Origin: Actinomycetota bacterium | Lineage (GTDB): Bacteria; Actinomycetota; Actinomycetes; S36-B12 | DNA: 64,000 bases | Assembly (NCBI GenBank): GCA_027729805.1 | Contig: JAQCEO010000001.1 | Span: 10,621-74,620 of the forward strand | Reading direction: 5' to 3' | Shown: positions 3,274 through 20,657 of the stretch, piece by piece | How the letters are laid out: every line of letters starts with the position of its first letter | Numbering within the stretch: position 1 is the first letter of the stretch | Program-made: the position numbers and the translations under genes | Notes under the pieces: generated by a model | The model's input: only the letters and a program-made list of their open reading frames with translations | Database searches by the model: none | What the model was told of the DNA's origin: nothing

Positions 3274-4191
3274 TTACTCCTCCGGTGCCACGAACTCAAC
3301 TCGCCGGTTGCGCTGCGCCCACACGACACAAGCGATCACCACGCATGCGGCCAGCAAAGTGGGCAAGGTGACACTTTCACCTAGCAACAGCGCCGACCAC
3401 AGCAAGGTAAGAAGCGCTTGCAATTGCTGCACCTGACTACCTCGGGCAATGCCGGCCATCGATAGACCCCGATACCAGGCGAAGAACCCGAAGTACATCG
3501 ACGAGATGCCAAGGGATATCAACGCGAACCATTGCGCGCTCGTGGTCGCGTAATTGACGCTGGTCGTAAACCACAACAGCAATGAAACAGGCACGGTTAT
3601 CGGTAGGGCGAAGACAACAACCCACGAAATCACCTGCCAACCCGGCATCACCTTGGTGACGGCTGCGCCCTCGACATAACACCAGGAGGAAAACAAGGTC
3701 GCACCCACCACTAACAAATCAGCCCAGTAATTCGGGCTGCTCGCACCACCGCGACCTAGTGCAAAGATCACCAGGGCAACAGTTCCGATACTCGCCGCTA
3801 ACCAGAACTTGGCGCTAACCCTTTCGTGGGTTCGGGACACCGCGATGATCGCGGTTGACAGCGGCATGAAGGCGATGATTACCGCAAGGTGAGCCGAAGT
3901 CGTGTACTGCAGCGCGATCGCAATCAAGATGGGCCAGCCGAAGACCGCTCCGACCATCGTCAAGAGGAGCGGCCGCACTACTGACCGGGACGGCCAAGCC
4001 ACCCGATTGACCGACAAAATCACCGCTGCCAAAACACCAGCAATGACCGCGCGGCCGGTCGCGGTAAAAAACGGATTGAACCCGCTAACCGCGACTTTGG
4101 TTAGCGGAACCGAAAAAGAGAACAGCAGTACCCCGAGGAAGGCCCAGGACAAGCCACGTAGGTGGATCTGCCGCGCGGTTAACTCCGGCAT
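3274..4191 (-). CDS. EamA/DMT-family polytopic membrane transporter
   Basis: 305 aa, about 10 hydrophobic segments, duplicated EamA-like halves. Confidence 0.75.
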   Translation of the reverse strand: MPELTARQIHLRGLSWAFLGVLLFSFSVPLTKVAVSGFNPFFTATGRAVIAGVLAAVILSVNRVAWPSRSVVRPLLLTMVGAVFGWPILIAIALQYTTSAHLAVIIAFMPLSTAIIAVSRTHERVSAKFWLAASIGTVALVIFALGRGGASSPNYWADLLVVGATLFSSWCYVEGAAVTKVMPGWQVISWVVVFALPITVPVSLLLWFTTSVNYATTSAQWFALISLGISSMYFGFFAWYRGLSMAGIARGSQVQQLQALLTLLWSALLLGESVTLPTLLAACVVIACVVWAQRNRRVEFVAPEE

Positions 4192-5152: not shown

Positions 5153-6517
5153 TTGAGCCTATTGGCCCGGTGGCCCGAATCGGTGCGCCCTGCCAAGCCA
5201 GTAGCGACTGACATGACACCATCACCTGTTGTGAACGTCTTCATCCGCCAGTTAACCGGCATCCGCTTCATTGCCGCCGCGTGGGTGCTGCTGTATCACT
5301 TACAAGGACCACTTAACACCCTCGGCCTATTGGCCATCCCGATCCTGCCGGATGTCATGCGCGTTGGCAGGCTCGGTGTCGACCTCTTCTTCGCCCTCTC
5401 CGGTTTCATCCTCACCCACACTTACTTAACCCGACTCGGCCCCCGCTTATCGGGGCGCAAAACAATTGATTTTTGGTGGCTGCGATTGGCCCGCGTGTAC
5501 CCGGTGCACTTGGTCATGCTCGTCATCGCGGGTGTAGCGGTTTTCGCGCAGGCGAAAATTTCTGGCACCGAACTTGACCGCGATTGGTTGAACCCGCTTG
5601 ACTTCGGCAAGAACTTGCTACTGGTGCAGGAGTGGGGGCCCAGCCCACAGCGTGGCTGGAATTTCGTCGCTTGGACACTTTCGATGGAGTGGCTTGCCTA
5701 TCTGCTCTTCCCGCTGCTTATTTTGCTCATTTGGGTTTTCTATCGCCGTGTTAGTACCACTTTCTTGGTAATCGCTTGGGTGGTCGTACTTATTCCGGTC
5801 ATCATTTACGGATTGAATACTTCTGACCCCTACTACACCGATAACTGGGGTTCCACCTACCGCATCCTGTGCGAGTTCACCGCCGGCGCTATCACCTATT
5901 TGATCGTGCGCCGCTTCTTGCCCGAAGCCGCCGCCGACCCCAAGCCCAATATTGAAAAACTCGCTAGCGCCCTGGCTGTGGTGCTGCCTTTACTCGTAAT
6001 CACCGGGTCGGTCGTCCTCGGCAACTTACCGGCCGCGCAGCCTCCTGCGGTTGACTTAGGCCCCGATGCGGAAGCTCTCCCACCCTATTTTCATCTCCTG
6101 CTCGTGCCCTTTCTAGTTGCCTGGATCGGCGCCCTCGCCCTTTCGCGGCGTGGCCTAGCCCGCACCCTGTCAACCCGCACCATGGTGCTAGGTGGCTTCA
6201 TCTCCTACTCCCTGTACATGACACACCTGGTTTGGTTCGGGCTCTGGCGGGCCGGGATGGACGCGGTTGGCATTGACGGTGGTGCGCTCTATGCCATCGG
6301 CACCCTTGGCTTGGTGGCCGGCGCACTAGCGATCGCCTGGTTGATGTGGCGCTTTGTTGAGGAACCGGCACGCGAGTGGATGCGCGCCCTGGCCGGTGCC
6401 AGACGCACCCCGACCGAAGAAGCCGGTGAGCAACTTGCGGTGCGGGCACATGGCGGTGACAGCGCCGAGCCCATCATCGTGCCGGGTAATGAAGACGGCC
6501 CCGGCGCGGTTCGCTAA
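5153..6517 (+). CDS. Acyltransferase family 3 (OafA/YrhL-like) integral membrane protein
   Basis: Multi-pass membrane protein with N-terminal LTGIRFIAAAWVLLYH and DLFFALSGF motifs. Start may be the internal M at about 5213. Confidence 0.75.
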   Translation: MSLLARWPESVRPAKPVATDMTPSPVVNVFIRQLTGIRFIAAAWVLLYHLQGPLNTLGLLAIPILPDVMRVGRLGVDLFFALSGFILTHTYLTRLGPRLSGRKTIDFWWLRLARVYPVHLVMLVIAGVAVFAQAKISGTELDRDWLNPLDFGKNLLLVQEWGPSPQRGWNFVAWTLSMEWLAYLLFPLLILLIWVFYRRVSTTFLVIAWVVVLIPVIIYGLNTSDPYYTDNWGSTYRILCEFTAGAITYLIVRRFLPEAAADPKPNIEKLASALAVVLPLLVITGSVVLGNLPAAQPPAVDLGPDAEALPPYFHLLLVPFLVAWIGALALSRRGLARTLSTRTMVLGGFISYSLYMTHLVWFGLWRAGMDAVGIDGGALYAIGTLGLVAGALAIAWLMWRFVEEPAREWMRALAGARRTPTEEAGEQLAVRAHGGDSAEPIIVPGNEDGPGAVR

Positions 6518-9716: not shown

Positions 9717-12700
9717 AAGACCACCTGCGCACCCTCAGGCTGCGCTGGGCAATTGCGTTTATGCGCGCAGAACATGCAATGGGAGCCGGTTACCGCGGTG
9801 AACTCCTCCGTCCGCAAAGTCTGCGCGGCGGCGCCAAGCTCAAGATCCACCCAGGTAGGTGAGACTTGTTCCAATGGCTCTTGGAACTGCACTTTGGGTT
9901 CCAACGCACCCTTGCTGGCATTAACACGAAGTTGCACGAGTGCGGCGCCTCCGACCTCATGCCCGCCAGCGCGGAGCAAAGACTGATAGACCCCGAGTTG
10001 GGCGTGCTCTGGCACTTTGCTGTCGGCCGGCGGGGTCTTCATATTCTTCAGGTCAATCGCGACCGACCGGCCTTGGCTATCTATCTCAATGCGATCAAGG
10101 AAGCCGCGCAAGTGCACCCGCTCCAGACCACCGGCCGGTGTCGGCACCTCTACGAATGCCTCTTCGGACTCCTCACTTGCCACCAACCGCCGATCGGCGC
10201 GCAGGTGATAGACCAAGAAACGCGTCAGGGCCTCGCGGGCCTGCGCTCGCTCCGCCGCTGATTGCCACGCGGACTCAAATCTAAGATCCGGCCAAACGCG
10301 ATCAACCAAGGCGTCCATACTGTCAATATCTGCCGACACCTCATCCTTGGCGACATAGTCGGCAACCGCGTGCACCACGCTGCCGAATTTCGTGGCCGCC
10401 GGGCGCAGGGTTTCGGCCCGGGCCTCATGCTCGAAGTACCAGCGCAGAGCGCAGCTATTGATGGACTCAAGGCCACTACCCGACAAGGTGATCGGCACAT
10501 CAGCTGATCGCACCGGGTGCGCACCTTCGGTGACCGCACCGATCGCCCACCACGAATCCGGATTGGCCACCGGCACCAGTGGCTCACCACTTTCGTCCTC
10601 AGCCCCCGCCAAGGAGGCCAACCGGGCAACCGCGGCCTCTCGCAGGGCCGGCGAACTCTCCTCGTCCATGCAGGTTTGACGCAGCCGCGCAACCAAGCCA
10701 TCAAGGGCGGCGGTAAAACGCGGTCGCCCAGATTTAGTCTCGGCAACCACTCCTAAGGCGCCGATAAACCGGCTCGGCTGTGGCCCGGTGTCAGTGCCAG
10801 ATGCAATAGCGGTGACCACGACGCGTTGCCGGGCCCGCGTGCAAGCGACATAGAACAGTCGGCGCTCCTCGGCCAGGAGATCGGCCGGGCGCACGCCATC
10901 TCCGACCCCGGCCCGGGTTAACCGGTCCGGCTCCAGAATCGAACCGCGGGTGCGCAGATCCGGCCACTGGCCCTCCTCGGTGCCAACCACCCAGACGGCC
11001 TCCCACTCCAGCCCCTTGGCCCGGTGTGCGGTCAAGATCCGCACCGCATCACTGCTGAGCGACCGATCGGCCACCGATTCGGCCGGTAGTTGCTGATTGC
11101 TCAGCAAAATCAAGAAGTTGCGCAAGCCCGCGAACCCTTTATACCGAGATTGGGTGCGCTCGGCGGTTTCGAATAACGCGATGACGGCGTCAAGGTCATG
11201 GTGTGCCGCGCGCGAACCCGCAAGTGCAGCATTTTGTAACCGCTCCGGCCAACCATGTGACCGCCCGCCAGCGAGTTGTTCGCGGGCAACCCGACCGGAC
11301 CAAATAGTCCAAAGCACAGCCTCTGGTGCAGCACCCGAGCGAATAAGTTGGTGCGCGGCCCGAAGTAGCGCGGTGCTGCGTTCGACGGCCAATCGGGCGG
11401 GGTCGGTAGCGGGCAAGGTGGCTGGGATCTCTAGATCACCGCGCAAAGTGTCGCGGATAAGTTGATCGGAAAACCCGGGCGGGGTCAGCGGATCGGCTAA
11501 CCGCGCCGCCGCGCGTAAGGCCCGGCCAAACCGCCGCAATTCGGCGGCATCAAGACCACCGAGTGGGCCGGTGAGTAGATCAACTGCCTGCTCCGCGGTG
11601 ATTCGACTCGGGTCGATCGCCATCTCGGCCACCTGCAGCAGCACGGCAACCGCCGGCTCCGCGCGTAAGGGGATTTCATCGGCCGCGATTGTGGTCGGCA
11701 CCCCTGCTTGCATCAGGGCCCGCTGCACGAGGGGGATCTGCCGCGCTGATCGCACTAGCACCGCCAGATCGGCCCAAGGGAGCCCATCGTCTAGGTGTGC
11801 GCGGCGAATTTGCTCTGCGATGTGGGCCGCCCGTGATGACTCACTATCGAAGAGTTGGACTTCAACGGTGTCGGTCGCGGTCTGGCCAGCTACCGGCGAA
11901 CCGCCAAGGCAGCTGGGGTTTCGATGTGCGTGCACCTGCTCCTTGGTGAAGGAGCCAATCGGCCGGGCACCGAGGATTGCGGTCGCGGCCTTGCGAATAT
12001 TTGGCCCAAACCGGCGAGTGCGCTGCAAGATAACAGTGGGCGCCGGCTCCCCGGTGCTGGTGCGAAATTGCTCGGGGAAATTCAAGATCCCATGGATGTC
12101 GGCGCCCCGAAACCCGTAGATCGCCTGGTCGGGATCCCCGACGACAACCAAGCTGGTGCGCGGGCCCACTAGGGCTTTGAGTAACTCGACCTGTAGTTGA
12201 TCGGTATCTTGATACTCGTCGACGTAGATAGCTCGATAAGTACGGTGCATCTGGGCGGCAACATCTGGGGCGCGCGCCGCGATCACCGCGCGGTGCAGGA
12301 GTTCGGTGTAATCACAAACATTCTCCAGCACCATCACGGCGCTCTCTTGTTCGGCGAGGGCGCCCAGGGCCGCCCAAGCTGGCCGGCCAGATCTCGCGCC
12401 GATGCGCTCAAGTTGCCCGGGGTCTAGGCCGAGCTCCCGGGCCCGCGCGAGCACCGACCTGATCTCATTGGCCAAACCCAAAGTGGTGACGGCGCCGGCT
12501 AACTCTTCGGGCCAGTTGATGGTGCCATCTTGTAGGGCGCCTACCAGCAGATCGCGAATACGAACATCTTCTTCGGCCCCGGAAAGTAGCCGCGGTGGAT
12601 CGCGCAGCTCCCCAACCGTTGCGGTTTGTTGCATCAGCCCGTACGCGAAGGAATGAAATGTCGCAACCAGCGGGCTCACCCCGCCCCCGAGCCGCTGCAC

Positions 12701-15450: not shown

Positions 15451-15663
15451 ATGAGCGAATCCGAAGTCACGATCACTGTCCTGGCCGATGGCCCCCTCGA
15501 AGTCACCGGCCCCTGCACCATCAATGCCGCCGACGGCAGCACCCTGAAAACTGGTGACAAGGCCTACCTCTGCCGCTGCGGCGAGTCGGCCAAGAAGCCG
15601 TTTTGCGATGGCAGCCATAAGCGCACGGGCTTTAGTGATCCAGGGCTCGGCCAGCCGGCCTAA
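15451..15663 (+). CDS. CDGSH iron-sulfur domain protein
   Basis: Signature CRCGESAKKPFCDGSH in a 70-aa protein. Confidence 0.9.
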   Translation: MSESEVTITVLADGPLEVTGPCTINAADGSTLKTGDKAYLCRCGESAKKPFCDGSHKRTGFSDPGLGQPA

Positions 15664-15889: not shown

Positions 15890-16070
15890 GACTACATGTC
15901 GCCGGACTCACGCGCTCAAGTCAAAGATATTGGACCTTGCCCTTGAATAGCCGCAAAGGGCACCCTTGATCCACCTCATGCATCAGGTGTACGACCGCGA
16001 CAACCGAGCGTGTACGTACATCATCCATGCCAAAACATGACATACGGGAATTTCTTTCTTCTGCCCCTTG

Positions 16071-17360
16071 TCAATAGCCCAACCCGTGCAGTAACCCCAG
16101 CCTCGTGCCGGGAAGTTTACACCGGAGGGAGAGAGACATTTCCCAACCGCGCACCTCTCGATAGATAAAATAGATGAGAAGTTTACACCGGAGGGAGAGA
16201 GACATTTCCCAACGCACCTCGCCCCGCCCTTCGACCTGGCGAAGCAGATCGGTGCGGCCCGCCCGCTGGGTGGGCCGGCCGGCGGAGCAATCGAGGAAGT
16301 CGGTCACCGTCAGCCGCGGCCAGACGGTCTTGAGGATCAGCGAATGGCCGTCGTACTGCTGCTGCGGGGCCGACGAATCGGCTGCGGGCTCGATCGTGAA
16401 GTGCCCGGCCGACTCACCCCCCACGAGCCCGGCGAACAGCGCTGGTCCGTCCACCCGCGGGGCACACATCCAGACGAGCCTGGCGCCGGGGGCCACCAGC
16501 GCCATCACCCGGCCGTCTGCGAGCAAAGCGTGCCGCTCGATCGGCACCGCGCCGGCCCCGGCCAGCCACGCCTCCCGCAGGCCGGCCAGCCGCGCGAGCC
16601 GGCGGGCCACGTCGGTCGGATCGGTTATCCGGTAGGTGGCTGCGGTCTCACCCGTCCCCACCTTGACCGAGACGTCCGGCCCGTGCAGCCTGACAAACGC
16701 ATCCTCGTCGGTCACGTCATCGCCGAAGTAGACGACGGCCGTGGCCCCGACCCGGTGCCGCAGCGCATCGATGGCCTCCCCTTTGGAAGTGTCGACCACC
16801 GTCAACTCGAGCACTTTCTTGCCCGCCTTGACCCGCACGTCGGCCCAGGTCGCCGCGCCGCCGAGCAGTTCCTCGACCGCCGAGTCGGCCACGGGGTCGG
16901 CGACGTTCCGATAGTGGAATGCGACCGAGGCCGGCTTGGGTTCGATCCGAAATCGCGGGTCGCGGGCGGCGATCCGGTGCATCTCGTCGAGCAGCTGCTG
17001 CCGGAGTTCCACCTGCTGCCCAGTGAGCGAGCGGACAAAATCCTGATCGAACTCGCTGCCGTGCGAGCCGACGAGCATCACCTGGCCGTCGAGAGCCGAG
17101 AGGGCGGCGAGGTCGGCGAGCGACCGCCCCGAGATCACGGCCGCGTGGGTTGAGCCGAGCGCGGCGACGGCCCGCAGGGCCACGATCGACTCGCGCACCG
17201 GAACAGCCTCCGCGGGGTCGTTCACGATCGGGGCGAGCGTGCCGTCGTAGTCCGTCGCCACGAGCAGCACCGGCACCTGCGCGATCGCCTCCAGGGCCCG
17301 GTCGAGATCGTCGAGGGTCGGCTGGCAGTCGCCGGCGGGCGGGGCGTTTGTGCCTGTCAC
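16071..17360 (-). CDS. otsB: Trehalose-6-phosphate phosphatase (HAD, OtsB) fused to an N-terminal fragment of a GH15 glycoside hydrolase domain; 3'-truncated at the repeat
   Basis: HAD motif LLVATDYDGTLAP. After about aa 270 comes GH15-like N-domain sequence (IERHALLADGRVMALV...). The native sequence ends at about 16214. The last ~48 codons are read through the two repeats into host DNA. The GTG start overlaps the otsA stop (GTGA). Confidence 0.8.
   Translation of the reverse strand: MTGTNAPPAGDCQPTLDDLDRALEAIAQVPVLLVATDYDGTLAPIVNDPAEAVPVRESIVALRAVAALGSTHAAVISGRSLADLAALSALDGQVMLVGSHGSEFDQDFVRSLTGQQVELRQQLLDEMHRIAARDPRFRIEPKPASVAFHYRNVADPVADSAVEELLGGAATWADVRVKAGKKVLELTVVDTSKGEAIDALRHRVGATAVVYFGDDVTDEDAFVRLHGPDVSVKVGTGETAATYRITDPTDVARRLARLAGLREAWLAGAGAVPIERHALLADGRVMALVAPGARLVWMCAPRVDGPALFAGLVGGESAGHFTIEPAADSSAPQQQYDGHSLILKTVWPRLTVTDFLDCSAGRPTQRAGRTDLLRQVEGRGEVRWEMSLSLRCKLLIYFIYREVRGWEMSLSLRCKLPGTRLGLLHGLGY
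16112..16147 (+). repeat. 36-nt repeat, copy 1 (gaagtttacaccggagggagagagacatttcccaac)
   Basis: Identical to copy 2. A 30-nt unique sequence (16148-16177) separates them. Confidence 0.95.
16178..16213 (+). repeat. 36-nt repeat, copy 2, abutting the left edge of the GC-rich block
   Basis: 36/36 identical to copy 1, period 66 nt. Both copies are followed by gcacctc (after an extra cgc in copy 1). Confidence 0.95.
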
Positions 17361-18814
17361 CGCGCGTCTCCTGCCGCCAGGGCTGCCGAGCTACCGTGGG
17401 CCGGGCCGGCGAGTACCGCGATGAATTCGTCGGCCCAGTCGTAGGCGGTTCGCTTCCGCACCCGCTGTCGTAGACTCCGCATCCGCCGGGCCTGCTCGTC
17501 CCGGGGCATCGCGATCGCCCGTTCGATCGTCACGGCCATCCCGTCGATGTCGTGGGGGTTCACGAGCACCGCCCGCTGGAGTTCGTGGGCCGCGCCGGTG
17601 AACTCCGAAAGCACGAGCACGCCCGTGTCGTCCCGTCGGGCGGCGCAATACTCCTTGGCCACGAGGTTCATCCCGTCGCGGAGCGACGTGACGAGCATGA
17701 GGTCGGCGGCCAGGTAATAGGCCACGAGTTTCTCGATCGGCAGGCTGCGGGGGAGGTAATGCACCGGCACCTGCCCCACCTCGCCGAACTCACCGTTGAT
17801 GTGGCCGACGAGCGTCTCGATCCGCTCCCGTATCTCGATGTATTCGTCGACCTGATCCCGGGAGGGCACGCTCACCTGCACGAGCACGAGATCCCGCACC
17901 GTGTGCCTGCCGGCCGCGAGAATCTCGTGAAAGGCCCGGATTCGATGATCGATGCCCTTGGTGTAGTCGAGCCGGTCGACGCCGAGCATGATCGTGCGAT
18001 TTGGCCCGAGTTCGGCCCGGATCTCACGGGCCCGCTCGATCGTAGCCGGATCGGCCGCGAGCTGGTCGATCTTCCAGTAATCGATCGAGATCGGGAATTC
18101 CCGCACCTCGACCCGCCTGCCATACACGCTGATCGAGTGACTCGCGCCGCGGTGGGGCGTGTAGCGATTGACCAGCCGGATGAAATTCCCGGCGCCCTGC
18201 TTCGTCTGAAAGCCGACGACGTCGGCCCCGAGCAGGCCTTCGAGAATCCGCTGCCGCCAGGGCAGTTGGGAAAAAAGCTCGACCGGAGGAAACGGGATGT
18301 GGAGAAAGAAGCCGATCCGGAGGTCGGGCCGCATCCGCCGCAGCATGCCGGGCACGAGCTGCAGGTGGTAATCCTGCACCAGCACGCTCGCCCCGGGGGC
18401 CGCCTCCCGGGCGGCGACCTCGGCAAACCGTTCATTGACCGTGACGTAGGGCTGCCACCATTGCCGGTGAAACTGCGGCTGCTGACAGGCATCGTGGTAG
18501 AGCGGCCAGAGCGTGCTGTTGGCGAAGCCCTCGTAGTAGTCGCGAACCTCGTCGGCCGAGAGCGAGACCGGCACGTTCCAGAGCCCGTCGTGGCGAAAGG
18601 GGGCGATCTCGCCGGACGCGCGGCCCCCCCCCCAGCCGACCCAGACGCCTTGCCGCTTCTGCAACAACGGCAGCAGGCCAGAGACAAGCCCGCCGGGACT
18701 CGTCTCCCAGCCGCCGTCGGTCCGATGGACCGGCAGTCGATTCGCCACGACAACCAGGTCGCCGCGGCCGCCCCCATCCAAGGCGGGAGGCGCCGGGTTC
18801 TCGTCTCCGCACAT
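17357..18814 (-). CDS. otsA: Trehalose-6-phosphate synthase (GT20, OtsA)
   Basis: VVVANRLP, LWPLYH, DYHL, LGVDRLDYTKG and RDGMNLVAKEY motifs. I prefer the ATG at 18814 (MCGDEN...) over the ORF-track start at 18892, which overlaps the upstream gene. Confidence 0.9.
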   Translation of the reverse strand: MCGDENPAPPALDGGGRGDLVVVANRLPVHRTDGGWETSPGGLVSGLLPLLQKRQGVWVGWGGGRASGEIAPFRHDGLWNVPVSLSADEVRDYYEGFANSTLWPLYHDACQQPQFHRQWWQPYVTVNERFAEVAAREAAPGASVLVQDYHLQLVPGMLRRMRPDLRIGFFLHIPFPPVELFSQLPWRQRILEGLLGADVVGFQTKQGAGNFIRLVNRYTPHRGASHSISVYGRRVEVREFPISIDYWKIDQLAADPATIERAREIRAELGPNRTIMLGVDRLDYTKGIDHRIRAFHEILAAGRHTVRDLVLVQVSVPSRDQVDEYIEIRERIETLVGHINGEFGEVGQVPVHYLPRSLPIEKLVAYYLAADLMLVTSLRDGMNLVAKEYCAARRDDTGVLVLSEFTGAAHELQRAVLVNPHDIDGMAVTIERAIAMPRDEQARRMRSLRQRVRKRTAYDWADEFIAVLAGPAHGSSAALAAGDAR

Positions 18815-18869
18815 GACAGAATTGTAATACCGGCTGTCTGGAAGGGACAACCGCGGGCTCGAGGCCGCC

Positions 18870-19391
18870 TCAGGGCTCGGCCGACTCTTCACTCGGGCCG
18901 TCGAGGGATTTCAGCCGTTCGGCGATCGCATCGGCCATGCTCGTGTTGCCGGCTGCCCGAAACCGTTCTTCGGCGCGGGTGAAGCAGGCCGACGCCTCGA
19001 CGCGATTGCCTTGGCGGGCCAGCACGACTCCGAGGTTGTATTCGAACACGGGCGACGCGGGGTCGAGCCGTACGGCCCGGCGGAAGGCGCCGACGGCCTC
19101 TTCGAGCCGGCCGATCCGCTCGAGCACGCTGCCGAGATTGTTGGCCGCCACCGCCGCACGGGGGTCGCCATCCACGGCCCGGCGGTAGGCTGCCGCCGCC
19201 TCGTCGAGTCGTCCGGCGGCATCGAGCGCGCGGCCGAGCGTCATCGCCGCCGCCGACCCGCCGCCACCGGCCTCGGCCTTGAAGTTGTCACCGGAGGGAG
19301 AGAGACATTTCCCAACGACGTTCTCCAAGATCGGAATCACTCGTTGGGAAATGTCTCTCTCCCTCCTCGCAACGTCCATCGCATGACTCAA
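18870..19391 (-). CDS. TPR-repeat protein fragment (native 5' end missing; the first ~37 codons of the ORF come from the repeat/hairpin and host DNA)
   Basis: About three TPR-like units (AYRRAVDGDP..., AFRRAVRLDP..., ACFTRAEE...). The ORF crosses the 19280/19281 junction. The first in-block ATG is at 19244. Confidence 0.6.
   Translation of the reverse strand: MSHAMDVARRERDISQRVIPILENVVGKCLSPSGDNFKAEAGGGGSAAAMTLGRALDAAGRLDEAAAAYRRAVDGDPRAAVAANNLGSVLERIGRLEEAVGAFRRAVRLDPASPVFEYNLGVVLARQGNRVEASACFTRAEERFRAAGNTSMADAIAERLKSLDGPSEESAEP
19281..19316 (+). repeat. 36-nt repeat, copy 3 (34/36 identical), abutting the right edge of the GC-rich block
   Basis: gaagttGTcaccggagggagagagacatttcccaac differs from copies 1 and 2 only at positions 7-8. 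Confidence 0.95.
19341..19376 (-). repeat. Inverted copy of the 36-nt repeat (anti-repeat), forming a long hairpin with copy 3
   Basis: 19341-19366 is the exact reverse complement of 19293-19318 (26 bp), with a 22-nt loop at 19319-19340. The outer 10 positions add 7 Watson-Crick pairs and 1 G-U pair after a 2-nt bulge. Confidence 0.9.
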
Positions 19392-19466
19392 TGCTGTTTA
19401 AGAGTGCGCCTACGGTTAGGGCTCTGGAACTGTTGCTGAACCTAATCTGTGCGTCCGGATCAGGTA

Positions 19467-20657
19467 TTAGTAGGAGGGCTTAGCCGGCTCAATCTGAGCA
19501 ACCCAAGCATTGATCCCGCCACCAACATGGATGGCATCGGTGAAGCCAGCCCCATGCACAACGGCGAGGGCCTCGGCCGACCGGCCACCGACCTTGCAGT
19601 AGAGCACGATCTGCTTATCCGTTGGCAGCGACGTGAGCGCCGATCCGTCAAGGAATTGACCCTTGGGGATGAGCACAGCGCCTGGGATTTGCACAATCTC
19701 CCATTCCACCGGTTCGCGAACATCGATCAGCGCGAAGTCCCGAGCACCCACCTCGCGCTCATCAAGCATTGCCTTTAACTGCAGCACCGAGATGGTCGAG
19801 TCACGGGCGGCATTAGCCGCCTCTTCCGAAATGCTGCCGCAGAACGCCTCGTAGTCGATTAGCTCGGTGACCGTCGGGTTAGCACCGCAGACGGCGCAGT
19901 TTGGATCCTTGCGGATCTTTACCTGCCGATAAGTCATTTCGAGTGCGTCATAAATCATCAGCCGGCCAAGGAGTGGCTCACCGATCCCCGCGAGCAATTT
20001 GATGGCCTCGGTGACTTGGATCGAACCGATGGATGCACACAGCACACCGAGCACCCCACCTTCGGCGCAACTTGGCACCATGCCCGGCGGCGGCGGCTCC
20101 GGATAAAGGCAGCGGTAGCAGGGGCCGTACTCGGCCCAGAACACCGATGCCTGACCGTCAAAGCGGTAGATCGAACCCCACACATAAGGCTTGCCGAGAA
20201 GGACGCAGGCGTCGTTGACCAAATAGCGAGTCGCGAAGTTGTCGGTGCCATCAACTATCAGGTCGTACTGGGCGAACAACTCCATCACATTGGATGAGTC
20301 CAAGCGCTCTTGATGCAATTGCACATTGACATACGGGTTGGTTTCGAGCACCCGCTCCCGAGCACTCTCGGCCTTGGGTCGGCCGATGTCCTTTTGGCTA
20401 TGGATGATCTGGCGTTGCAGGTTTGATTCATCAACCACATCGAACTCAACGATGCCTAAGGTGCCGACCCCGGCGGCGGCCAGGTAGAGCAGGGCCGGGC
20501 TGCCGAGGCCACCGGCACCAACACAGAGCACCTTGGCATTTTTTAGGCGCTTTTGGCCCGCCATGCCGACATCGGGGATGATCAAGTGGCGGCTATAGCG
20601 CCGGACTTCGTCGGACGTTAACTCAGCGGCTGGGTCAACGAGTGGGGGCAGGTGCAT
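19467..20657 (-). CDS. moeZ: MoeZ/MoeB-type adenylyltransferase-sulfurtransferase (ThiF domain + C-terminal rhodanese)
   Basis: GAGGLGSP nucleotide loop, CxxC pairs, and a C-terminal rhodanese with YCKVGGRS. I prefer the start at the ATG at 20657 (MHLPPLVD...) over the extended ORF start at 20768. Confidence 0.9.
   Translation of the reverse strand: MHLPPLVDPAAELTSDEVRRYSRHLIIPDVGMAGQKRLKNAKVLCVGAGGLGSPALLYLAAAGVGTLGIVEFDVVDESNLQRQIIHSQKDIGRPKAESARERVLETNPYVNVQLHQERLDSSNVMELFAQYDLIVDGTDNFATRYLVNDACVLLGKPYVWGSIYRFDGQASVFWAEYGPCYRCLYPEPPPPGMVPSCAEGGVLGVLCASIGSIQVTEAIKLLAGIGEPLLGRLMIYDALEMTYRQVKIRKDPNCAVCGANPTVTELIDYEAFCGSISEEAANAARDSTISVLQLKAMLDEREVGARDFALIDVREPVEWEIVQIPGAVLIPKGQFLDGSALTSLPTDKQIVLYCKVGGRSAEALAVVHGAGFTDAIHVGGGINAWVAQIEPAKPSY

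Follow-up and report, generated by a model that had tools for sequence, protein, structure and literature searches.

We analysed a 64-kb stretch of DNA (hereafter the window; positions 10,621 to 74,620 of the 123,973-bp contig JAQCEO010000001.1) from a freshwater member of Actinomycetota, whose named SecA relatives, at 80–81 % identity, are metagenome-assembled genomes (MAGs) of Candidatus Nanopelagicales and Actinomycetales. Between the genes for a CDGSH iron-sulfur protein and a moeZ-like ThiF/rhodanese protein the window carries three copies of a 36-nt repeat, GAAGTTTACACCGGAGGGAGAGAGACATTTCCCAAC, all in direct orientation, the first two identical and the third with two mismatches, exactly where a preceding sequence-only reading of the same DNA had placed them (Table 1). 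The 36-mer was matched in none of 100 shuffles and has no other copies in the 64 kb. The first and second copies are separated by 30 nt (S1) in a regular repeat–spacer–repeat arrangement, the second and third by 3,067 bp of foreign DNA that contains a complete gene. We show that the repeat belongs to a type II-C CRISPR (short palindromic repeats, clustered and regularly interspaced) family whose relatives carry cas genes and a trans-activating CRISPR RNA (tracrRNA) gene at the same site, and we suggest that the foreign block probably entered the array in the manner of a spacer.

By composition the block is foreign, as had been suspected from spot counts: a sliding G+C check gave 0.697 for the block, against a mean of 0.601 (sd 0.014) and a maximum of 0.644 in 549 other 3,067-bp windows, and the G+C content at third codon positions (GC3) is 0.85 in otsA vs 0.69–0.71 in host genes. 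Its gene content agrees with the earlier reading too, Pfam matches and alignment to a donor-type locus (L011) identifying on the minus strand the 3' part of a tetratricopeptide repeat (TPR) protein gene, otsA and the 5' part of an otsB–trehalase (GH15) fusion, with the two end genes each cut inside the gene at a repeat border; the reading frames are intact and the otsB–GH15 fragment contains no stop codons. No terminal inverted or direct repeats were found at the block ends, neither a tRNA nor an Rfam scan of the 64 kb returned a match, and no cas or mobility domain occurs in the 17 open reading frames (ORFs) of the window scanned with Pfam (the ten largest otherwise unexamined ones plus the block and its neighbours; about 35 further ORFs were unscanned). 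The absence of transposase, integrase, tRNA and terminal inverted repeats that had been reported for this block is upheld within this scope. The reported absence of cas genes also holds for the scanned ORFs, none of which places a cas gene beside the repeats within the 64 kb; what had been missed is the tracrRNA–cas9–cas1–cas2 set at the same site in relatives.

Table 1. Features of the variable interval and its anchors (positions in the window; crRNA, CRISPR RNA)
Feature	Position	Strand	Basis or remark
CDGSH iron-sulfur protein gene	15451..15663	+	Pfam zf-CDGSH; conserved left anchor of the variable interval
Remnant of the region upstream of the relatives' tracrRNA gene	15990..16111	+	Alignments to L006 and L009
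CRISPR repeat R1, crRNA sense GTTGGGAAATGTCTCTCTCCCTCCGGTGTAAACTTC	16112..16147	-	At the position of the relatives' tracrRNA anti-repeat
Spacer S1, 30 nt	16148..16177	-	Functional arrays of the family: 27–29 nt
CRISPR repeat R2, identical to R1	16178..16213	-	Borders the block
Foreign block of 3,067 bp in spacer position	16214..19280	-	G+C content; 83 % nt identity to L011
otsB–trehalase (GH15) fusion, 5' 382 codons	16214..17360	-	Pfam Trehalose_PPase and TREH_N 3-119/211
Complete otsA, trehalose-6-phosphate synthase, 485 aa	17357..18814	-	Pfam Glyco_transf_20
TPR protein gene, 3' ~136 codons, cut at the R3 border	18870..19280	-	Pfam TPR families; L011
CRISPR repeat R3, first-transcribed ('extra') repeat of the array	19281..19316	-	Two derived substitutions, 19287–19288
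Inverted partial repeat	19341..19366	+	Perfect 26-bp hairpin with R3; 22-nt loop 19319–19340
Conserved region upstream of the array (crRNA sense)	19367..19466	-	Aligned with functional array L008 and with L010
moeZ-like ThiF/rhodanese gene	19467..20657	-	Pfam; synteny in L010 and L017–L024; right anchor of the variable interval

The 36-nt sequence is a true CRISPR repeat of type II-C. With its 22-nt core as query, 185,579 species-representative genomes gave one match, in a Candidatus Nanopelagicales MAG (L001), at the extreme end of a 121-kb contig and directly downstream of the genes for a type II Cas1 (TIGR03639, 196 bits) and Cas2, and a metagenome collection gave five loci (L006–L010). Locus L006 has the order CDGSH 3' end, tracrRNA, cas9 (1,126 aa), cas1, cas2, array; arrays of 19, 45 and 16 repeats are present in L007, L008 and L009, respectively, the last adjoining cas2–cas1–cas9, and the arrays of the family hold 75 distinct spacers, every one 27–29 nt long. 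Since the cas set of these relatives comprises cas9, cas1 and cas2 only, without csn2 or cas4, their system is of type II-C; the closest solved structures to their Cas9 are 8d2k (E 4.5e-182) and 4ogc, which we take to be the Acidothermus and Actinomyces enzymes. The tracrRNA (L006 ~625–720; L009 ~5740–5830) consists of an anti-repeat, GGAAAGAGAGACATTTCCCAAT, a stem–loop and a terminator, and the anti-repeat is complementary to the repeat's 5' part, the whole repeat being read as GTTGGGAAATG...AAACTTC. Because of this pairing sense, and because the cas2-side array end of L001 carries a terminator hairpin with a U-run in the same sense, the crRNA sense in the window is the minus strand. Outside actinobacterial arrays the repeat was not found in the genome, metagenome and viral collections scanned.

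Several properties of the arrays themselves were noted. The 3' end of the repeat, GGTGTAAACTTC, holds a TANNNT-type -10-like box that, by analogy, may act as a promoter within these repeats, repeat-embedded promoters being known in the type II-C system of N. meningitidis (PMC12477760, PMC12080349). At the cas2-side end, AAACTTCAGG, the 3' end of the last repeat, supplies one half of a strong hairpin, behind which comes a U-run in the crRNA sense (L001 1190–1245; L006 5395–5440; L008 130–170), an intrinsic terminator that is partly built of repeat. Spacers 31 and 38 of L008 (counted from the hairpin end), TAGAGCACGCGAGCCTGTCAAAAATCGC and TTAGAGCACGCGAGCCTGTCAAAAATCG, represent one protospacer with a 1-nt shift; L007 and L008 contain one adjacent duplicated spacer unit each, and L008 also has one repeat with a 2-nt deletion. 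Protospacers, and with them a PAM, were sought without success: the 45-repeat array had no BLAST match among 50,697 phage records, viral-contig scans with the doubly acquired spacer, the repeat and S1 gave no match, and none was obtained for all 76 spacers against every fetched locus. At 30 nt, S1 lies outside the length range of the family; its kinship with the tracrRNA stem–loop (common CTCGAT...GAT.GAG) was considered and dropped, the similarity being too weak to use. S1 and the block both start with (C)GCACCTC directly after a repeat (CGCGCACCTCTCG past repeat 1 and GCACCTCGCC past repeat 2; window 16148–16160 and 16213–16221), an 8-nt coincidence, last repeat base included, for which we offer no explanation.

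Comparison with these loci indicates that the window carries a decayed version of the cassette that relatives keep at the same site. The stretch that adjoins R1 on its left in the window aligns, as far as GTGC(C)GG(G)AA, with the DNA immediately to the left of the anti-repeat of the tracrRNA in L006 and L009, and R1 therefore sits at the tracrRNA start position; the tracrRNA itself is absent from the window, with R1 in its place. From this alignment it appears that tracrRNA, cas9, cas1, cas2 and part of the array have been deleted, and that R1 is probably the junction of the cas-operon deletion, at which the anti-repeat start and the repeat start share a GAA(G) microhomology. In L010, a relative at ~88 % nt identity, the hairpin described below and one repeat are left, next to a DUF4379 gene, and in L017–L024 (likewise ~88 % nt) the CDGSH–moeZ interval is free of any repeat. 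The empty site that the sequence-only reading had proposed to look for in relatives exists in L017, where the outer flank of L009 (L017 7732–7880; L009 6035–6183) abuts the outer flank of L008 (L017 7877–8003; L008 3378–3504) with a 4-nt overlap, so that the whole tracrRNA–cas9–cas1–cas2–array cassette is a clean presence/absence polymorphism within a set of close relatives. In L010 (4598–7288) the lone repeat is followed, after ~300 nt, by a gene for a 710-aa protein of nine DUF4379 treble-clef zinc-finger repeats, which replaces array and cas genes; the G+C content of this DUF4379 block is host-like, and it was set aside as a second case of insertion.

A search for the donor lineage, also proposed earlier, led to planctomycete-type loci. 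The closest non-self homologues of the OtsA encoded in the block are 86 % identical in amino acid sequence, and named relatives further out belong to Phycisphaerae/Planctomycetota. Three loci (L011–L013; G+C 0.68) carry intact genes for the TPR protein (672 aa), OtsA (506 aa) and an OtsB–TREH_N–GH15 protein (857 aa) in the same order, adjoining a gene that encodes SBP_bac_10 (PF07596) and N_methyl domains, a combination that we take to be typical of planctomycetes; none of the three contains a copy of the CRISPR repeat. Block and L011 are collinear, with 83 % nt identity, and the homology runs from 19280, the first base past repeat 3, to 16215, one base from repeat 2. The junctions have 0–2 nt of ambiguity and 0–1 nt of microhomology, and neither shows any trace of a previous spacer. 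As judged from these alignments, the block is one random, collinear piece of a planctomycete-type chromosome, filling the exact space of a spacer.

The insertion is inherited and was found in two samples, three assemblies and at least two haplotypes. An independent ENA assembly (L002, sample SAMN03444948) spans both junctions, with four flank differences from the window, and a second strain (strain B) with the same insertion is represented by a 46-kb ENA scaffold (L015, SAMN03444961) and a Logan contig (L016, SRR2027830). In strain B the repeats flanking the block are identical. The window strain and strain B differ at nine positions in the block (0.29 %), a divergence that matches the adjoining host DNA from ~13.5 to 21 kb; beyond these limits the two strains form a recombination mosaic. 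When the block changes are polarized with L011–L013, the window strain has five derived ones, each of which is non-synonymous and four of which are GC to AT, and strain B has three. Within otsA, seven of the eight changes between strains are non-synonymous, which weakly suggests relaxed constraint, given that roughly three-quarters are expected to be so by chance and 7/8 is close to that figure. Since L002 combines the block and repeat-3 alleles of the window with strain-B alleles at moeZ positions 19483, 20202 and 20445, several recombinant haplotypes coexist in the sampled population.

The right end of the window array (repeat 3, the 22-nt loop, the inverted partial repeat and ~100 nt of flank) is almost the same in sequence as the L008 array at its cas-distal end, and as L010. 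The sequence-only reading had noted an inverted copy of the 36-mer here and had spoken of a 96-nt palindrome. An inverted copy is indeed present, 22 nt from copy 3; it does not extend over a full 36 nt to 19376, as had been claimed, and comprises a 24–26-nt core (19341–19366). Through it, the upstream region forms a perfect hairpin of 24–26 bp with the tracrRNA-binding part of the first ('extra') repeat (-69 kcal/mol, z -8.5; window 19293–19366; L008 3054–3125; L010 4512–4585; L015 9460–9534), and this hairpin is kept in functional and decayed loci of the family alike. Because the same end is found in the functional L008, the palindrome is an ordinary array end and no part of a mobile element. 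Leader–repeat hairpins are known from type II-A and were stated not to be found in type II-C (PMC12080349); by analogy, this type II-C family may suppress extraneous crRNA in the II-A manner. Another reading, in which the hairpin served as tracrRNA anti-repeat and the moeZ side as acquisition leader, gave way to the present one in view of the tracrRNA of L006 and of PMC12080349. The R3 substitutions of the window strain are adjacent (19287–19288, TA to GT on the plus strand), are the sole changes in repeat 3 and destroy the TAAACT -10-like box that is predicted to drive transcription into TPR'-otsA-otsB'; in strain B R3 is canonical with the box intact, and the two changes are derived. Loss of the box could stem from selection against cargo expression or from the usual decay of a repeat in terminal position.

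During spacer integration, staggered attacks are made at the two borders of a repeat and gap filling duplicates the repeat. Considering that the insert is flush with both borders (0–2 nt), that the repeats beside it are complete and, in strain B, identical, and that no spacer remnant is present, the footprint is that of spacer integration by Cas1–Cas2. One of the candidates of the sequence-only reading, in which an orphan CRISPR-like array received the block where a spacer would sit, gains support from the identity of the repeat and from the flush borders. On these comparisons, the best explanation, and in our view a probable one, is an oversized integration by Cas1–Cas2 with duplication of the repeat, followed by loss of the cas operon. 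We suggest that the CDGSH–moeZ interval would have held a complete type II-C cassette, as it still does in some strains, of which the window would be a decayed copy; that Cas1–Cas2, at that time still present, would have joined both ends of a 3,067-bp linear planctomycete-like fragment to the two borders of one repeat; and that gap repair would have duplicated the 36-bp repeat, giving a repeat–insert–repeat structure with flush junctions and an insert ~100 times the normal 28 nt. A later deletion, at the GAA(G) microhomology, would have taken tracrRNA, cas9, cas1, cas2 and the rest of the array, and the cargo would have drifted neutrally afterwards. Both the joining by Cas1–Cas2 and this order of events are what we infer from the final structure. 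As to the bolder statement that this is a natural 'mega-spacer', a 3-kb piece of the chromosome of another phylum, including a complete gene, that a type II-C Cas1–Cas2 put into a repeat with duplication, we regard the case for it and the case against it as balanced.

Several points weigh against oversized integration. Cas1–Cas2 complexes size their prespacers by a ruler, and an insert of 3,067 bp stands against the 75 spacers of 27–29 nt; moreover, full-text searches on long, oversized or kilobase-scale spacers gave no precedent for a 3-kb substrate. With no cas gene in the scanned ORFs of the window, involvement of Cas1–Cas2 would be historical. The block lies at the first-transcribed 'extra' repeat, opposite the cas2 side, which is the oldest slot by the rule of PMC12080349, new spacers in the type II-C systems of Neisseria and Campylobacter entering at the last-transcribed, cas2-side repeat (PMC12080349, PMC12477760). 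Acquisition is strongly stimulated when the array is a single repeat (PMC12477760), and the position of the block may reflect integration into a single-repeat array, ectopic integration, or a clade with opposite polarity; the last is considered because the hairpin between upstream region and first repeat resembles, by analogy, the leader arrangement of type II-A. Finally, we are dealing with one evolutionary event, the junctions are supported by assemblies rather than by inspected reads, and the donor is known only through relatives, the nearest of which is 83 % nt identical.

Alternatively, the array could have suffered a double-strand break, arising spontaneously or from a staggered cut at the repeat borders by Cas1–Cas2 or another nuclease; the break would have been filled in and a stray foreign fragment ligated into it by Ku/LigD-type end-joining, which is common in Actinomycetota. 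The 0–1 nt of junction microhomology is what blunt end-joining would give, and the later cas-operon deletion likewise resembles a microhomology event. However, a random break within a spacer would leave spacer remnants, whereas the foreign homology starts and ends at the repeat edges, and for the flanking repeats to stay complete, resection would have needed to halt precisely at each border. We consider break repair unlikely, and a staggered cut made by Cas1–Cas2 would in any case merge it with the oversized integration favoured here.

Improbable, too, is an origin by homologous recombination, in which incoming DNA with the block beside one or two repeats (a circle, or the array of another strain) recombined with the resident array. 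Repeat–repeat recombination with transformed DNA is documented in a type II-C array (PMC12477760), the strains at the locus are recombination mosaics, and the allele probably spread within the population by this route. As an account of the origin, though, it merely moves the joining of planctomycete DNA to CRISPR repeats to another cell, and the repeat is known from actinobacterial arrays only and is lacking in the donor-type loci.

An assembly chimera had been listed by the sequence-only reading and has to be weighed, given that CRISPR arrays are classic sites of misassembly and all data are metagenomic. In such a chimera the assembler would have left the array for a planctomycete genome present in the same sample and then returned, for instance through two spacers derived from that genome. 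In keeping with such difficulties, the L015 scaffold is interrupted at the first repeat by a gap of 100 N, and contig L003 breaks at repeat 1. Against a chimera stands the Logan contig L016, which is 3,125 bp long, is made up of the block with 29 nt of repeat at either end, and stops where the repeat makes the graph branch. If Logan contigs are built at k=31, as is assumed here, reads must join block to repeat, because a 27–30-nt spacer cannot share a 31-mer with a genome. The same structure is seen in both samples and all three assemblies, including a second strain; the between-strain differences in the block comprise derived alleles on both sides, and its divergence is that of the adjacent host DNA. 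Furthermore, no other contig with an OtsA more than 86 % identical, and hence no separate planctomycete contig of this kind, was found in a collection of 15 billion proteins. Taken together, the assemblies indicate that the insertion is real, and we hold a chimera to be very improbable.

That two small non-autonomous repeat elements (miniature inverted-repeat transposable element (MITE), repetitive extragenic palindromic (REP) or composite-transposon-like) captured or mobilised the block, another candidate of the earlier reading, to which the bracketing direct repeats and the nearby inverted copy lend some appearance, is scarcely credible for a repeat that pairs with a tracrRNA anti-repeat, was found elsewhere in arrays only and has no further copies in the 64 kb, beside a block with no transposase in the scanned ORFs, no terminal inverted repeats, no target-site duplication beyond the repeat itself and an inverted copy that is a conserved array-end feature. 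A casposon was also considered and rejected: nothing but OtsA and the fragments of the TPR protein and of OtsB is encoded in the block, which has no casposase, PolB or terminal inverted repeats.

Elsewhere in the window, the Pfam-scanned ORFs are core actinobacterial ones, namely an AdnAB-like helicase–nuclease pair, SecA, MtrB/LpqB, AdoHcy hydrolase and NAD-GDH. A search for exact copies of the moeZ product of the window matched no record. Relatives carry, between the CRISPR site and moeZ, tandem paralogous genes for peptides of 55–57 aa, e.g. MSKSEVCAPVSSAPTDRLALGVGWVRPGVAGIGGTLNPSIGLAFNVCNCFEGNEE (L017 8101–8271 and 8344–8511; L010 ~3300–3990, three copies), each followed by a conserved hairpin-like sequence. 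These peptides have no Pfam match, their genes are absent from the window, and they may be precursors of the RiPP (ribosomally synthesized and post-translationally modified peptide) type. Contig SXGT01212109.1 (L006, positions 1–280) opens with the 3' end of the LPG-synthase gene in reverse orientation, and the CDGSH gene's 3' half follows immediately; this contig end is probably an artefact of a fold-back during assembly.

The components of the locus (a type II-C system, an orphan array remnant and horizontally acquired otsAB DNA) are each known; their combination was not found described in full-text searches. By repeat and synteny the locus is a member of a type II-C array family, and its insert departs from the spacers of that family in length and agrees with spacer integration at its junctions. 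Spacer acquisition is regarded as strictly length-limited, and the proposal that it descends from casposon transposition is based on comparisons and on in vitro experiments. If the oversized integration suggested here is correct, the ruler can fail in vivo, spacer acquisition can occasionally act like casposon transposition, and the locus would be a present-day instance of the intermediate that has been postulated to link transposition with adaptation. CRISPR arrays would then occasionally capture whole foreign genes, here from a planctomycete-like donor into an actinobacterium, and constitute an unrecognised route of horizontal gene acquisition. Further cases can be sought as inserts of >100 bp flush between identical repeats. 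In addition, the locus records how, in Actinomycetota that are abundant in freshwater, a type II-C system has decayed step by step at a site that varies between strains.

With respect to known systems, the block resembles insertion sequence (IS) elements, MITEs and composite transposons in being a set of genes between direct repeats; it differs from them in having no transposase (in the scanned ORFs), terminal inverted repeats or dispersed copies, and in being bracketed by a CRISPR repeat. Spacer integration by Cas1–Cas2 at ectopic or off-target sites, reportedly described by McGinn & Marraffini in 2016 and by Nivala et al. in 2018, likewise takes place away from the canonical leader-adjacent repeat and duplicates its target, but involves spacers of normal length rather than 3,067 bp. 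As in orphan or degenerate CRISPR arrays, an isolated mini-array with a mutated terminal repeat is found where relatives keep the full system, yet ordinary orphan arrays hold spacer-sized inserts, and here a 3-kb insert is flush with the repeats. With the type II-C loci of Neisseria meningitidis and Campylobacter jejuni, and those of AceCas9 and AnaCas9, the family shares the 36-nt repeats, the cas9–cas1–cas2 set and the tracrRNA upstream of cas9 in relatives, an array read towards cas2, and, as in N. meningitidis, a TANNNT-type -10-like box at the 3' end of each repeat. The window departs from these loci in lacking a tracrRNA, and cas genes in the scanned ORFs, and in having only three repeats, one 'spacer' being gene-bearing foreign DNA, and the family departs from them in its perfect hairpin between upstream region and first repeat (cf. 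PMC12080349). Nearest in concept are casposons, which a Cas1 homologue inserts; spacer acquisition is proposed to derive from their integration (PMC4046053, PMC6977970), and casposons, too, are kilobase-scale DNA flanked by a direct target duplication, which in the reading preferred here would likewise have arisen through staggered integration of the Cas1 type; what would set the present case apart is that a random chromosomal fragment, and not a mobile element, was inserted, and that the duplication is a 36-bp CRISPR repeat.

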